A DNA stretch of 64,000 bases from an uncultured Thermococci archaeon. Its GTDB lineage: Archaea; Methanobacteriota_B; Thermococci; Methanofastidiosales; B48-G16. This document shows, piece by piece, positions 9,099 through 58,365 of this stretch. Location of the stretch: assembly GCA_964595645.1 (NCBI GenBank), contig CAZQQT010000004.1, positions 64,001-128,000 of the forward strand, given 5' to 3'. The notes under the pieces are model-generated. The model searched no databases. It had not been told where the DNA came from and saw only the letters and a list, made by a program, of their open reading frames with translations. The stretch's first letter is position 1; each line of letters starts with the position of its first letter. A program made the translations under genes and the position numbers.

Positions 9099-9323
9099 TA
9101 TATTCTTGGTATGTATGAATGTTCTTAAGGGTTTGGTGCGCATCGTACACCACGAGGAGAATGATTTAGAGGGATATGGAGGCTCTAAATGTACTGTCAA
9201 GGGTGAAAAGTTATTAGTAGTCATTTGAAACCGGATCTGGAATAAGGCAAGATCTGGTTTCGTAAAAAGAGCATTTTCGGCTCCAAAAAAATTACGTTAT
9301 TTTAGATTTAAAGCCCAAAATAG

Positions 9324-45169: not shown

Positions 45170-45894
45170 ATATCTCCCTCGATGTCCTCTATAAATTTTT
45201 TTGCGGTATCAACATCAATACACTGAGAACGGAGTTCTCGCATCACCCGTTGTATTGAATACCGTGTGAGGAACGGGTACTTCTCATGTAACTGTTTAAG
45301 GAACGCACACCCAAATTCCTGTGATTCCTCGCCTGTGATCTCACGATGATCCTCCTTCGTAAACGAGAGCATTGCAGGAATATTGAGCCGATACAGCTCC
45401 CCTACTTTGTAGATTGCGTGAGAACCGACAGAAAGCATGTCCCCAAATCCAACGAATTTATATCCATTGTGTTGAGCAAACTCATAAATTTTTTCTTCTA
45501 TAAAAGAATGACACCGTCCACACGGATGAAAACGCTTTTTTTCTGCCTCCTGCCAAATTTTTTGATATGTGTTATCATGAATAAAATTGAGAGGGATCTC
45601 ATGATCTTCGCAAAAGCGTTCTACAGGCTCCTTTCGTGATTTTGATACCAAAAATGTGACGGCCTCTGGAGTAAGGTGAAACTCTTTGGCAACGAGCGCG
45701 GAGGCCTTGCTGTCAATTCCTCCAGAAAGTGCTATCAGCGTCTTGGCACTTTTCGGTGGTTTTTCCGTCTCGCCAAGCCTTGATTTGAGTATAGGCTTTA
45801 TATATGTATCTAAATCTTTATCTCCGTATTTCTCCAATCTTTTTAGTGCGTTCCGCACCCGATAAGTATCTCTAAATGTTTTTGCCTGTTTCAT
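45160..45894 (-). CDS. PP-loop ATPase (COG1365-like)
   Basis: Motifs ALSGGIDS, HPCGRC, FGD and FGC. Start at MKQAK. Confidence 0.85.
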   Translation of the reverse strand: MKQAKTFRDTYRVRNALKRLEKYGDKDLDTYIKPILKSRLGETEKPPKSAKTLIALSGGIDSKASALVAKEFHLTPEAVTFLVSKSRKEPVERFCEDHEIPLNFIHDNTYQKIWQEAEKKRFHPCGRCHSFIEEKIYEFAQHNGYKFVGFGDMLSVGSHAIYKVGELYRLNIPAMLSFTKEDHREITGEESQEFGCAFLKQLHEKYPFLTRYSIQRVMRELRSQCIDVDTAKKFIEDIEGDICS

Positions 45895-46718
45895 GATTTT
45901 CCCTTGTAATATGTATAGACGCTGGTGGACCCCCATTTCGGTTCGCAAAGTCCCTCATACACCTCCCAGAGTGTTTTTTCGAGAAAGATACTGCTTTTTT
46001 CCCGCATGCAGGAGTCCTTTTCTTCGGTGAGATTTTTTCTCTTCCACCTGTTCAGCCAAAAAAAGGTGGTGGGATTCACAAGGATTGTACCATCGTGGTA
46101 CTTGATTTCTTCATCAAAATCACCCAAAACAAGGGGAATGTCGTTTTTCTGTGCATACTCCAGCGCACATTTCCGTGTTGTCTCTTTACACTCGCTACAG
46201 TCCTGGATTCTCTCCTCAATGATCACGGATTCATAGGAACTCGTGATCTTTGGGTAGGTGAGGCGGATGGTGAGTGGAGTAGGATCGAACCCCAGTATTT
46301 TTGATATACGGAATGAATGGAGACTTTTGCAGGGTACTACTAATGACTTACCATTCGTTGGAAGCGGATCCATCTCCCCTGCAAGATTACGTTCGTTTTC
46401 TAGGTATTTTTTGAGTCTTTCTGAGATAGGATCGTCCTTTAACGCGTGAAGGCTTTTTGTGAGGAGTTCCTTCCTTTTTTTTCTATCGAGATGAGAGAGT
46501 ACTGTCACATACCGCACACCGACTCGTTTTTTGAGCTCTGCCACCACCTTCCCGTATCCAATGATATTGCTCTTATCAGCCCTGTCTTCGGCGATAATGT
46601 AGAGGGTATCTCGCTCTCCATTGTAGATAGTTTGTTTTATTTCTGGTGTCCTCTGTGGAAATCCAAAGTCTTTTCTGATGGCGATAATCTCCTGCAATAC
46701 CCTATCCTTGTTAAACAT
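45891..46718 (-). CDS. Conserved archaeal hypothetical protein partnered with the PP-loop ATPase
   Basis: DRADKSNIIGYG (KH-like), CSEC; ATGA overlap with the downstream gene. Confidence 0.7.
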   Translation of the reverse strand: MFNKDRVLQEIIAIRKDFGFPQRTPEIKQTIYNGERDTLYIIAEDRADKSNIIGYGKVVAELKKRVGVRYVTVLSHLDRKKRKELLTKSLHALKDDPISERLKKYLENERNLAGEMDPLPTNGKSLVVPCKSLHSFRISKILGFDPTPLTIRLTYPKITSSYESVIIEERIQDCSECKETTRKCALEYAQKNDIPLVLGDFDEEIKYHDGTILVNPTTFFWLNRWKRKNLTEEKDSCMREKSSIFLEKTLWEVYEGLCEPKWGSTSVYTYYKGKS

Positions 46719-46834
46719 TCGTTGTTACTCGTCGCAATGGTTATAAAAAGGTTTGGTTATACACGCTGTACTCCAAAAATTGGACTTCCCCCCACATAAA
46801 AAAATTTTTATAGCGTGAAAAGATAAAATTGCCT

Positions 46835-47572
46835 ATGGAAACACCGAAAGAGAACATTTTTGAAGAGGCGAAAAGAATCATTGATGTTACCATCGAAAAT
46901 GATGTGCATCTCAAACTCATGGGGGGACTCGCGACAAGGATTCACTGCGAGGTAGAAGGGTTTTGTAACCGTGAGTACTCGGATATCGATGTCGTCGGTC
47001 TGAGCAAAGAAAAAAGCAGCATCGAGGATATATTCTCACAGTTGGGATACATACCGGATACTCGGTTCAATGCACTCCACGGACACAAGCGACTCAAGTT
47101 CGAGGAGGATATATATGGCAGGCATGTGGATGTGTTCCTCGATCGATTTGATATGGACCACGACTGGGATCTCTCCACACGGTTGAATAGTGAAGCGCAC
47201 ACGCTTCCCCTGAGCGATCTTCTTCTAATGAAACTCCAGATCTGCAAAATTAACGAAAAAGATATACGGGATATCCTCACCATGGTAAAAGACGCGAGGA
47301 TAGGAGAAGAGGAGGCACCCCATACAATAAACCTAAACTACATCGCAGAGAGATGTGCACAAGACTGGGAACTGTATGAATCTGTGCTCGAAAATATAAA
47401 GAAAATAGGAATGATGCTGGATGAGTACGATCTTAGTGGAGAAAAAACAACAATCGAAAAAAGATTAAAAAAGTTGATGAAAAAGCTAATAGCGCATCCT
47501 AAGACGGCAAAATGGAAGCTGCGTGCTGTTATAGGAAAACACCGCAAATGGTGTCAGACTGTTGAAGAATAA
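46835..47572 (+). CDS. Nucleotidyltransferase-like protein
   Basis: Motifs LMGGLA...YSDID, VDVF, KLQI and KD..D. Confidence 0.65.
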   Translation: METPKENIFEEAKRIIDVTIENDVHLKLMGGLATRIHCEVEGFCNREYSDIDVVGLSKEKSSIEDIFSQLGYIPDTRFNALHGHKRLKFEEDIYGRHVDVFLDRFDMDHDWDLSTRLNSEAHTLPLSDLLLMKLQICKINEKDIRDILTMVKDARIGEEEAPHTINLNYIAERCAQDWELYESVLENIKKIGMMLDEYDLSGEKTTIEKRLKKLMKKLIAHPKTAKWKLRAVIGKHRKWCQTVEE

Positions 47573-47616
47573 ACGCAGATATTCATTTATTTTTTTGGAT
47601 ATGGCAAAATTGCGAT

Positions 47617-47631
47617 CGAAAGGTTTTTAAA
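47617..47631 (+). promoter_or_regulatory. BRE/TATA promoter of candidate sRNA
   Basis: CGAAAGG-TTTTTAAA, about 23 nt upstream of the helix start. Confidence 0.7.
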
Positions 47632-47653
47632 CAAGAAACATGATAATAGTAAA

Positions 47654-47728
47654 GAGGAGGCTGGGGAGCAAACAGCTCTTCTGTTCACCACCTCCCACAC
47701 CCCCCACTCCTCGGCCTCCTCACTTTTT
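47654..47728 (+). ncRNA. Candidate small RNA with C-rich anti-SD-like loop
   Basis: 15-bp helix GAGGAGGCTGGGGAG/CTCCTCGGCCTCCTC (2 G-U pairs), inner hairpin AACAG/CTGTT, unpaired CACCACCTCCCACACCCCCCA, TTTTT end. Confidence 0.7.
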
Positions 47729-47856
47729 AGATGGATAATTTAACTGAATAGGTAACACCGTTTGGAGAGCGTGTATATTAATCTTTCCCCTGATTTAAAA
47801 TTTTCCTTATAATTGTATATGAACAATATATTGAACTATAAAAAAAGAAAAGAAGA

Positions 47857-49290
47857 TCAGTAGTGTTTCGCGAAGTAGACAAGATCGTCAGTTTCCTTTC
47901 CACAGACCACGCATTCTCCTTTTTTGGACTCTTCAAAGAGAATACACGCAGAGGTCGCTCCTGTATCGTCCTTTATTCTTTCTTCACATTCTATGGAACT
48001 ACAGAAAGGAATTTGCACCATCTTTCTTTCCTCTATCGCCTTTTTTAGCTCGTCATAGGAGTGTACCTCGATGGTATTATCTTTGAGGAAGGTTTGTGCC
48101 TGCGTGTAGAGATTCGTCTGTATCGCCTGGAGGGTTTTTTCTGTTTCTTCGGCGATGGTTTCCATGGAGACCGCCGTCTTTTCTCCTGTATCTCTCCTCA
48201 CGAACATTACCTGGTTTTTCTTGATATCCCTGGGACCGATCTCGATACGTAGCGGCACACCCTTCAGCTCCCAGTGATTGAACTTGTACCCTGCAGTATA
48301 CTCCTCTCTATCATCGAGATGCACGGAATGCGTTTTCTCCAGTACGCTTCTTATTTCTTCAGCTTTCTCCAGTACACCCTTCTTCTTGTCTTCAAAGACG
48401 ATGGGCACTATCACGATCTCTATCGGTGCTACTCTGGGCGGGAGTACGAGTCCTCTGTCATCCGCATGGGTCATTATTAATGCTGCGATAGTTCGGGTTG
48501 TCAGACCCCATGAGGTCTGCCAGACGTACTTCTCCTTCTCATCGCTATCCGTATATGTGATGTTGAAGACCTTGGCAAAGTTTTGACCGAGATTATGGGA
48601 CGTGCCGCCCTGTACCGCCCGTCCATCGGGCATCAGCGCCTCCACGGTAGTGGTGTACAGCGCGCCGGCAAATTTCTCATTTTCCGTTTTATATCCTGAT
48701 ATCACTGGAATCGCCAGCAGCTCTTCGTAAACTTCCTTATATATATCTAGTATCTTCAGCATCTCTTCATCCGCCTCCTCCTTTGTAGCGTGGCAGGTGT
48801 GCCCTTCCTGCCACAGGAATTCTCTGGTCCGCATGAAGAGCTTGGTCATCTTCGTCTCCCACCGTACAACATTCGCCCATTGGTTGATGAGGAGGGGGAG
48901 ATCCCGGTAACTTCGTATCCACTGTGCGTACATATGGTTGATGATGGTCTCAGAGGTCGGCCGGATTGCCAGTTTCTCGTGCAGTTTCGAACTCCCTCCA
49001 TGGGTCACCCACGCAACTTCAGGGGAAAATCCTTCCACATGATCTGCTTCTTTTTTAAAAAACTTCTCTGGGATGAATAGGGGAAAGTACGCGTTTTTAT
49101 GTCCTGTCTCCTTGATTCGTCTATCCAGATATCCTTTAATTTTCTCCCATATTTCGTATCCGTAGGGCCGTATCACCATACACCCTTTTATCGGGGAGAA
49201 ATCTGCTAGTTCTGCTTTTAAAACCACCTGATTGTACCATTCTGAAAAATCTTCAGATTTTTTTACCATTATACCTTCTTCTTCTGCCAT
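47857..49290 (-). CDS. proS: Prolyl-tRNA synthetase (archaeal type)
   Basis: Motifs RPTSET, REFLWQEGH, GTSHNLGQNF and C-terminal Y. Confidence 0.98.
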   Translation of the reverse strand: MAEEEGIMVKKSEDFSEWYNQVVLKAELADFSPIKGCMVIRPYGYEIWEKIKGYLDRRIKETGHKNAYFPLFIPEKFFKKEADHVEGFSPEVAWVTHGGSSKLHEKLAIRPTSETIINHMYAQWIRSYRDLPLLINQWANVVRWETKMTKLFMRTREFLWQEGHTCHATKEEADEEMLKILDIYKEVYEELLAIPVISGYKTENEKFAGALYTTTVEALMPDGRAVQGGTSHNLGQNFAKVFNITYTDSDEKEKYVWQTSWGLTTRTIAALIMTHADDRGLVLPPRVAPIEIVIVPIVFEDKKKGVLEKAEEIRSVLEKTHSVHLDDREEYTAGYKFNHWELKGVPLRIEIGPRDIKKNQVMFVRRDTGEKTAVSMETIAEETEKTLQAIQTNLYTQAQTFLKDNTIEVHSYDELKKAIEERKMVQIPFCSSIECEERIKDDTGATSACILFEESKKGECVVCGKETDDLVYFAKHY

Positions 49291-57184: not shown

Positions 57185-58365
57185 AAATTACGGCAGATTT
57201 TCATATCCACTCAAAATATTCTGCTGCAACCTCTGATAAGATGGAAATCCCTGTGATCTCGACGGAAGCGAAGTTGAAGGGTCTCAATATTGTGGGAACA
57301 TCGGATGCCTTTCATCCTTCCTGGCTCTCACATTTACGAACCTCACTGCACGAAGAAGCGGAGGGTACCTTCGAGGCGGGAGGAGTACGGTACATCCTCA
57401 CAGTGGAGATCGAGGACGTCCATAGGGTACATCATCTTATTATTCTCCCTTCGTTCTCACAGGCGGAGGAACTCTATGAAGAGTTCAAGAAGTACTCACA
57501 GGATATCGATACTAACGGGCGGTGCCGGGTGGAACTCACGGGAGATGAGATCGCCGAGCGAGTGAGGTCGGTCGACGGGATCATCGGGCCTGCACACGCA
57601 TTCACGCCCTGGACCGCAATATACGCGGAGCATGATTCTCTGCAGGAATGTTATGGAGAGTACGTAGACAAAATAGACTTTCTGGAGCTTGGACTTTCCG
57701 CAGATACGGATCTAGCCGATCATATCTCGGAGCTACGAGACCTCACCTTCATGAGCAACAGCGACGCCCACTCTCCCTGGCCACACAGGATGGGGAGGGA
57801 GTTCAACATCCTCAGTGTCGAGGAGCCCACCTACGCAGAGATCGTGAAGGCACTCAGACGGAAAAACGGGAGAAAATTCGTAAAGAACATCGGGCTTAAC
57901 CCCCGGCTTGGCAAGTACCATAAAACAGCATGCATACAATGTCACAACCAGTATACACTGGAGGAGGCAAAGGAGATGCACTGGCGGTGTGAGTGTGGAA
58001 AGACAATAAAGAAAGGTGTGTACGACAGAATTATGGAGTTAAAGGATCATGAGCACACACATCCTGCACATCGACCTCCCTATCTGCGGATCGCTCCTCT
58101 CGCGGAGATCATCGCACTGAAAAAGAGACACAGTCTCTCCACCAAAAACAACACCGCACTGTACAAAAAATTTCTAGAACAGTTCGGTAGCGAGATAGAT
58201 ATCCTCGTCCATAGTGGATATGATGAACTCAAAAAAGTAGACAAAGAAACGGCAGAGTACATTTTGAGTTACAGGGAGGAAACGATGGAGATCACGCCTG
58301 GAGGGGGAGGGAAGTACGGGACCCTACACATGACACCGGAAAGTCTCGAGGACTGGATTACGTAG
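57181..58365 (+). CDS. PHP + Zn-ribbon nuclease (TIGR00375/endonuclease Q-like)
   Basis: Motifs DFHIHSKYS, PAHAFTPW, ELGLSAD, SNSDAHS, GKYH..C..C and PGGGG.YG. Confidence 0.9.
   Translation: MKITADFHIHSKYSAATSDKMEIPVISTEAKLKGLNIVGTSDAFHPSWLSHLRTSLHEEAEGTFEAGGVRYILTVEIEDVHRVHHLIILPSFSQAEELYEEFKKYSQDIDTNGRCRVELTGDEIAERVRSVDGIIGPAHAFTPWTAIYAEHDSLQECYGEYVDKIDFLELGLSADTDLADHISELRDLTFMSNSDAHSPWPHRMGREFNILSVEEPTYAEIVKALRRKNGRKFVKNIGLNPRLGKYHKTACIQCHNQYTLEEAKEMHWRCECGKTIKKGVYDRIMELKDHEHTHPAHRPPYLRIAPLAEIIALKKRHSLSTKNNTALYKKFLEQFGSEIDILVHSGYDELKKVDKETAEYILSYREETMEITPGGGGKYGTLHMTPESLEDWIT

Follow-up and report, generated by a model that had tools for sequence, protein, structure and literature searches.

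Sibling small RNAs with a conserved C-rich, anti-Shine-Dalgarno-like loop predicted in an uncultured lineage of Thermococci

The intergenic element and its predicted transcript

The window (the whole stretch of 64,000 nucleotides that was analyzed) belongs to an archaeal genome of 1.97 Mb and 43% GC assembled from a microbial-mat metagenome; the DNA runs carrying the source DNA were microbial-mat and hypersaline-lake metagenomes. Two genes converge at the locus, a 247-aa ORF (+ strand, ending at 47572) and proS (- strand, ending at 47857), and the GC-rich island described between them in the initial annotation was recovered, with a GC content of 0.55 within the element vs. 0.17-0.37 in its flanks. 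The promoter, the 15-bp helix and the T5 run were likewise found by direct reading where they had been placed. The following features were assigned:

47617..47631, + strand: BRE/TATA promoter, a purine-rich BRE (CGAAAGG) and then the TATA box TTTTTAAA; read directly
47654..47728, + strand: predicted non-coding RNA of about 70-75 nt, type A member of the family described below; start from the TATA spacing, end from the T5 run
47654..47668, + strand: 5' arm of the closing stem, purine-rich, with two GGAG-like blocks; pairs with 47707-47721
47669..47706, + strand: C-rich loop of 38 nt, unpaired in the MFE and centroid structures
47707..47721, + strand: 3' arm of the closing stem, pyrimidine-rich; pairs with 47654-47668
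47724..47728, + strand: T5 run, a likely archaeal termination signal; read directly

The center of the TATA box lies approximately 26 nt 5' of position 47654, which is the usual archaeal spacing, and both transcript ends of the type A RNA are predictions, taken from this spacing and from the T5 run. Both non-Watson-Crick pairs of the 15-bp helix are G-U on the + strand only, as originally proposed. The + strand folded with a minimum free energy of -30.4 kcal/mol into a structure that makes up 63% of the ensemble; no fold as good was obtained from 200 dinucleotide shuffles (z -4.74), while the - strand of the element reached a z of -1.98 only. An inner 5-bp hairpin that had also been annotated (47671-47675 with 47681-47685) proved not to be conserved: in two orthologues a C-to-A change disrupts it, and it is absent from the RNAalifold consensus.

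For the 247-aa ORF (46829-47572, +), Pfam gave no match, and the flanks of the relatives contained no counterpart. In a genome of the same genus, the orthologue of a 275-aa ORF (45891-46718 in the window) directly adjoins the sRNA instead, which suggests that the 247-aa gene is an insertion specific to the source genome. The upstream neighbor of the type A RNA differs between the two genera.

Known classes of RNA were searched at the locus. No family of Rfam 15 was assigned to it at the gathering threshold, the only match within the window being a tRNA elsewhere, and a permissive scan of positions 47400-47950 returned eukaryotic miRNA and snoRNA noise of 12-18 bits, vs. thresholds of 60-105 bits. 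ARAGORN detected neither a tRNA nor a tmRNA at the locus (the two tRNAs of the window are located at 9323 and 10671). Box C/D sRNAs have a C box (RUGAUGA) and a D box (CUGA) with guides of 10-12 nt between them; neither box was present in 47654-47728, and no C/D family of Rfam matched. H/ACA sRNAs are expected to have a two-sided pseudouridylation pocket below an upper stem that carries a K-turn or K-loop, and, directly after the lower stem, an ACA box. Here, neither a conserved upper stem nor a GA-type K-turn was found, the three post-stem nucleotides were ACU, AUU, AAC or AUA rather than a conserved ACA, and the sole H/ACA match in the permissive scan (16.9 bits) was on the opposite strand. 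The initial statement that the element lacks tRNA, C/D and H/ACA architecture was thus borne out by ARAGORN, by reading of the boxes and by the Rfam scans.

No ATG, GTG or TTG occurs within the type A RNA (47654-47728), and a frame-breaking difference in length (C5/C6) exists among its orthologues, so that coding is unlikely. A small protein was considered and rejected: the 33-codon frame in question starts from an ATG at 47640, opening 9 nt after the TATA box and upstream of the predicted RNA start. Origin from a mobile element or virus was also discarded, given that the flanks are unique and that the matches to an 18-20-mer, two in viral contigs and others in bacteria, were all in GC-rich DNA and apparently due to chance.

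Orthologues, covariation and sibling RNAs

The homolog search suggested in the initial annotation recovered orthologues by BLAST in 5/5 other genomes of the taxonomic family, and an exact-pattern scan added six further orthologous metagenome contigs. In the alignment of orthologues the promoter was conserved, while the stems varied by G-C to A-U, C-G to U-A and G-U changes. Double changes affected three pairs in a five-sequence alignment, with 95.9% of cells pairing vs. 50-62% in a slide control, in which the partner column was shifted and the pairing fraction recounted. Loop positions 47676-47705 were identical across the five genomes and six contigs except for the C5/C6 length difference, leaving 29 loop nucleotides invariant in 11 orthologues. 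DNA outside the element was barely alignable, and the neighboring ProRS was only about 77% identical. An invariant loop and a compensated stem amid diverged flanks indicate selection both on the pairing of the stem and on the sequence of the loop. An intramolecular triplex, formed by the loop on its own stem, was rejected on the grounds that the loop is unchanged when the stems change.

An 18-nt block of the loop was found to recur elsewhere in the same genomes within different stems. Two covariance models were built, R1 from the orthologues and R2 from 18 members, and matches to the type A RNA scored 85-103 bits in all genomes of the family. Altogether, 17 members were distributed across six genomes:

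Source genome (G000): three members, at C4:111654-111721 (type A), C5:75954-76013 and C3:~57573-57634
Same-genus genome (G001): four members
G004: five members
G005: three members
G002 and G003: one member each, each genome being about 90% complete
Metagenome contigs: nine members, in addition to the 17 of the genomes

No match at E ≤0.01 was obtained in 127 other genomes of the class, which as searched includes about 97 Thermococcaceae genomes; the few matches outside the family had E values of 0.02-0.04 and scores of 23-25 bits.

The siblings share an architecture in which a single stem of 12-16 bp, its 5' arm rich in purines and its 3' arm in pyrimidines, closes a loop of 30-40 nt. A purine-rich BRE and a TATA box ending approximately 20 nt before the stem were present in all 15 members inspected, and most of the members inspected had a T-rich tract 3' of the stem. 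In an alignment of 18 members, fitted to the structure of the covariance model and to that extent favoring pairing, 94.6% of stem cells paired (44-57% when slid), 13 of the 15 stem pairs carried changes on both sides, and no shuffle reached the observed covariation. RNAalifold independently recovered the single stem from the 18 members. Moreover, 34 stem cells were G-U pairs that would be A-C on the opposite strand, vs. only six cells in the opposite case, an asymmetry indicating that the + strand RNA is the selected molecule.

Taken together, these predictions describe what is very probably a real, conserved and lineage-specific family of sibling sRNAs. The family relationship among the putative siblings is newly established here, with covariance matches confined to one taxonomic family. 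The original proposal of an independently transcribed, structured sRNA with a C-rich loop is strongly supported as a prediction by the covarying stem, the invariant loop, the promoters at fixed distance and the G-U asymmetry. Two of the outcomes that had been named as speaking against it, a match to an Rfam family and lack of conservation of helix and loop, were looked for, and neither was observed.

A scan for intergenic hairpins returned the siblings and one unrelated hairpin with a CCUCCU loop. The latter (G000:C2:106181-106213, +) is preceded by a promoter and combines a stem of 10 bp with a loop of 13 nt, UUGUCCUCCUUUU, which contains CCUCCU; its sequence is unrelated to the family. Two long intergenic hairpins rich in GGAG/CUCC, with stems of 18 and 12 bp (G000:C1:100178-100240 and G000:C3:134312-134386, respectively), were also non-members. 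A wider class of promoter-driven hairpins was rejected, too few (the siblings and one other) having been found to generalize.

A strong hairpin between convergent genes, followed by a T-run, could also represent only a bidirectional terminator or a palindrome acting at the DNA level. A terminator would close a transcription unit at its 3' end, lack a promoter and leave the loop sequence unconstrained. This element, by contrast, is preceded by a BRE/TATA of its own at the expected spacing, as are all members inspected, and keeps an invariant loop of 29 nt that a terminator does not need. In addition, the upstream ORF and proS each have a T-tract of their own (47591-47597 for the ORF; a T-rich tract immediately after the stop at 47857 for proS). 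One paralogue separates two divergent genes and is about 90 nt away from the hisS start, and the G-U pairs, asymmetric between the strands, point to a single RNA strand as the one selected. This reading is considered very improbable.

The position of some members next to aminoacyl-tRNA synthetase genes raised the question of a cis-acting sensor, either T-box-like or similar to a leader peptide. The type A RNA is located 126-140 nt past the proS stop in 11/11 loci (proS at 47857-49290 in the window), and in the source genome type B is found about 90 nt from the start of hisS (G000:C5; hisS L130:2-1414). One loop frame reads CAC CAC CUC CCA CAC CCC (His-His-Leu-Pro-His-Pro) and another Pro-Pro-Pro-Thr-Pro-Pro. 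A T-box, by contrast, belongs to the 5' UTR of the synthetase gene under its control and has a specifier and a bulge binding the tRNA 3' end; no T-box match was obtained from Rfam. The RNA is oriented convergently with respect to proS and divergently with respect to hisS, hence outside either 5' UTR and in neither mRNA, an orientation that largely refutes the sensor. Adjacency to hisS was restricted to the source genome, the type B orthologue of the sister genome adjoining grpE-dnaK and other paralogues adjoining grpE, MFS, TrmB-like, primase and other genes. Furthermore, there was no continuous complementarity with any of 43 tRNAs, and the putative leader peptide would have no start codon and would be interrupted by the frame-breaking indel. 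A sensor can be dismissed almost entirely, and the adjacency to synthetase genes probably reflects inherited synteny plus coincidence.

The conserved loop and its possible partners

The selected loop sequence consists of a U-rich tract, found before the C-rich block in all members, and then ACCACCUCCCACACCCCC, with a family-wide core, ACCUCCCA, that contains CCUCC and is kept in at least 17 of 18 members (47690-47697 in type A). The flanks YACCAC and CACCCCC were conserved in 13-17 of the 18. Based on the positions kept in at least 17 of 18 members, the center of conservation corresponds to the CCUCC pentamer of the anti-Shine-Dalgarno (anti-SD) sequence; the pentamer was altered to CCCCC, CUUCC or ACUCC in some paralogues. 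In both the MFE and the consensus fold the loop stays single-stranded, and it presents what defines an anti-SD seed, namely a conserved single-stranded sequence complementary to the SD.

The 16S rRNA ends in GAUCACCUCCU, and CACCUCC (47689-47695 in type A) is identical to its anti-SD heptamer. When the loop sequence CACCUCCCACA was compared with the pre-16S end plus trailer, CACCUCCU/ACA, 10 of 11 positions were identical. In the source genome (region of G000:C2:122733) the 16S 3' end and trailer read CACCUCCU/ACAC, as compared with CACCUCCCACAC in the sRNA loop; three genomes of the family have the ACA of the trailer, which is kept in G001 and G002. Beyond the 7-nt anti-SD, the likeness of the predicted loop to the pre-16S is suggestive and could be due to chance. 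Of the initial idea that the RNA mimics the 16S tail, the shared CACCUCC stands, while the loop matches only 7 nt of that tail.

The use of SD sites, claimed at the outset for the genes of the window, was confirmed for the genome, GGAGG preceding 345 and GGTGA 338 of 1790 crude gene starts. With the commonest SD site, GGAGGUGA, pairing would be better for the 16S tail than for the sRNA loop. Predicted duplexes of the loop were stronger with start regions than with gene interiors, and equal to those of the reversed loop: across the 1790 start regions they were no stronger than those of the reversed sequence (5th percentile -20.3 vs. -19.6 kcal/mol). As the reversed loop does equally well, the apparent affinity for start regions is compositional. 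The description of the loop as anti-SD-like stands as regards its most conserved positions, which contain CCUCC. The functional part of the initial proposal, namely SD masking or 16S-tail mimicry with leaderless mRNAs spared, drew no direct support from the energies of start-region duplexes and stays tentative.

Targets were also searched genome-wide, using seeds of 7-8 nt plus duplex energy as well as 12-, 18- and 29-mers with mismatches. No conserved extended complement of the loop in trans was found in this search and in the relatives, and no rRNA site was among the best genome-wide complements. The complements obtained were the antisense strands of the sRNA genes themselves, coding sites rich in Gly codons (such as a CVGGGSN motif at C10:32326), a stretch of a membrane-protein gene with similarity in the sense orientation, and one site of 14 nt. 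The last (G000:C10:70201-70214; L169:1602-1615, +) is a perfect complement of the loop core, and its first base is the G of an ATG. With this ATG a possible ORF of 21 codons (MGVWEAS...) begins, behind a promoter-like string (GAAAGC-TTTTATA). This site at C10:70201 was genome-specific, its central part being unconserved in the relatives and both flanks conserved. Pairing with, or mimicry of, tRNAs was discarded as well, only broken duplexes being obtained with the 43 tRNAs, with no continuous complementarity.

These results bear on the possibility that an RNA-binding protein docks on the invariant loop, or that the loop is a decoy of the (pre-)16S 3' end, rather than a base-pairing seed; as a decoy it may titrate, for instance, a Nob1-type 3'-end endonuclease or an initiation factor. 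The 29 nucleotides invariant in 11 orthologues form a single strand longer than typical seeds, which counts against a seed and would suit a protein-binding platform too, and the genome-wide search gave no conserved RNA target. The identity at 10 of 11 positions to the 16S end plus trailer, together with the ACA of the trailer kept in three family genomes, would also fit a decoy, and so would the U-rich tract ahead of the C-rich block in all members and the three Sm-like (LSM) proteins encoded in the genome. For the base-pairing reading, an LSM protein serving as chaperone for a U-rich plus seed RNA has plausibility only. On the other hand, the 16S match beyond the 7-nt anti-SD could be chance, and synteny pointed to no candidate protein, the neighbors of the paralogues being unrelated. 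Overall, a protein platform or decoy appears rather unlikely.

A second promoter-like element was detected on the minus strand, at 47774-47790, where GGGGAAAG and then ATTAATATA form a BRE/TATA-like sequence that points at the sRNA. It might drive a G-rich antisense RNA, which would either be a common partner or sponge of the sibling loops or be neutralized by the + strand RNA. The motif GGGRAAAn-TTAATATA (minus) is kept in 11/11 type A loci, approximately 50 nt past the 3' end of the sRNA, in a spacer that otherwise diverges. It is not followed by a gene in its orientation, and apart from an antisense RNA of this kind the genome would contain no extended complement of the loop. Nevertheless, an equivalent element is absent beside the other paralogues, no T-run follows the antisense hairpin, the G-U pairs become A-C mismatches on the minus strand, and the element could serve another purpose. 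A sense/antisense pair is accordingly judged distinctly improbable.

Proposed function and comparison with known systems

The best explanation of these results is that the type A RNA is a proS-linked sibling sRNA acting in trans on SD-like sites of mRNAs, to which we assign a probability of roughly 0.5. Trans action of the family through the loop is likely when considered separately, and represents the most economical reading of an invariant loop, variable scaffolds and separate promoters; that the partner of the loop is an SD-like mRNA sequence is more tentative, with chances at or somewhat below even. We infer trans action, an RNA rather than a protein as partner, and SD sites as targets.

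According to the proposed mechanism, each sibling would be transcribed from its own BRE/TATA promoter, and the stem, which would only have to pair, would hold open a single-stranded loop of 30-40 nt. Through this shared loop, the siblings would pair with G-rich, SD-like sequences (GGGAGG/GGAGGUG) in the start regions of mRNAs, and the translation of a subset of SD-led genes would be lowered. Different promoters would switch on different siblings.

A more speculative version, considered quite unlikely, is that the siblings are expressed mimics of the 3' end of the small-subunit rRNA, comprising the anti-SD heptamer and the first nucleotides of the trailer, and act globally when induced. If true, they could soak up SD-led mRNAs and shift translation to messages that are leaderless or have a weak SD; alternatively, they could titrate a factor recognizing the 16S 3' end, e.g. 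a Nob1-type maturation nuclease. Titration would couple ribosome biogenesis or the mode of translation to the conditions sensed by three differently regulated promoters.

Among bacteria, RsaE/RoxS of Firmicutes are C-rich-seed sRNAs that pair with Shine-Dalgarno regions. Like them, the predicted RNAs described here would be small and independently transcribed, with unpaired, sequence-conserved C-rich motifs complementary to G-rich ribosome-binding sites. There is no relationship to RsaE/RoxS in sequence or in Rfam, the family is archaeal and has BRE/TATA promoters, and RsaE/RoxS form several short hairpins with C-rich apical loops where the family has one long stem and one very large loop. Listeria LhrC1-5, the streptococcal csRNAs and Vibrio Qrr are families of sibling sRNAs with a shared seed. 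The parallel lies in the several paralogues per genome, with the same single-stranded seed on different scaffolds and promoters of their own; these families are bacterial, not archaeal, and have no homology to the one described here. In archaea, Methanosarcina mazei sRNA41 reportedly masks ribosome-binding sites in polycistronic mRNAs. Compared by description only, the two have in common a proposed occlusion of SD sites by an archaeal sRNA that acts in trans. sRNA41 comes from an unrelated organism, is unrelated in sequence and, unlike the present family, has experimental targets.

RoxS is the subject of one published account (PMC5419742), sibling sRNAs in Neisseria are that of a second (PMC5362039), and a Val-tRNA fragment of Haloferax volcanii is described as binding the 30S subunit and competing with mRNA (PMC5711459, PMC11009984). 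The H. volcanii fragment resembles the present family as a small archaeal RNA with a global action on translation initiation, and differs from it as a processed tRNA fragment that binds the ribosome, whereas the family RNA is a predicted primary transcript resembling the anti-SD. Because the family RNA resembles the ribosome's own anti-SD, its partners would be mRNAs or factors and not the 16S tail.

In its presumed mode of working, the family would thus most resemble RsaE/RoxS, LhrC, the csRNAs and, among archaea, sRNA41, and would be a member of none of them. It falls outside these systems on account of having no Rfam relationship, a different architecture and an archaeal promoter. To our knowledge, a seed has been defined for very few sRNAs of archaea, and the notion of sibling sRNA families comes essentially from bacteria. 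Here, a promoter, a terminator, a covarying stem, an invariant loop and paralogues were found from sequence only, in an uncultured sister lineage of Thermococcales, and the covariance model can be used to annotate the family in metagenomes. Should the loop bind a protein or mimic the 16S end, the family would represent a new type of RNA decoy; should it pair with SD sequences, it would be an archaeal counterpart of RsaE/RoxS and would offer a handle on the balance between SD-led and leaderless translation.
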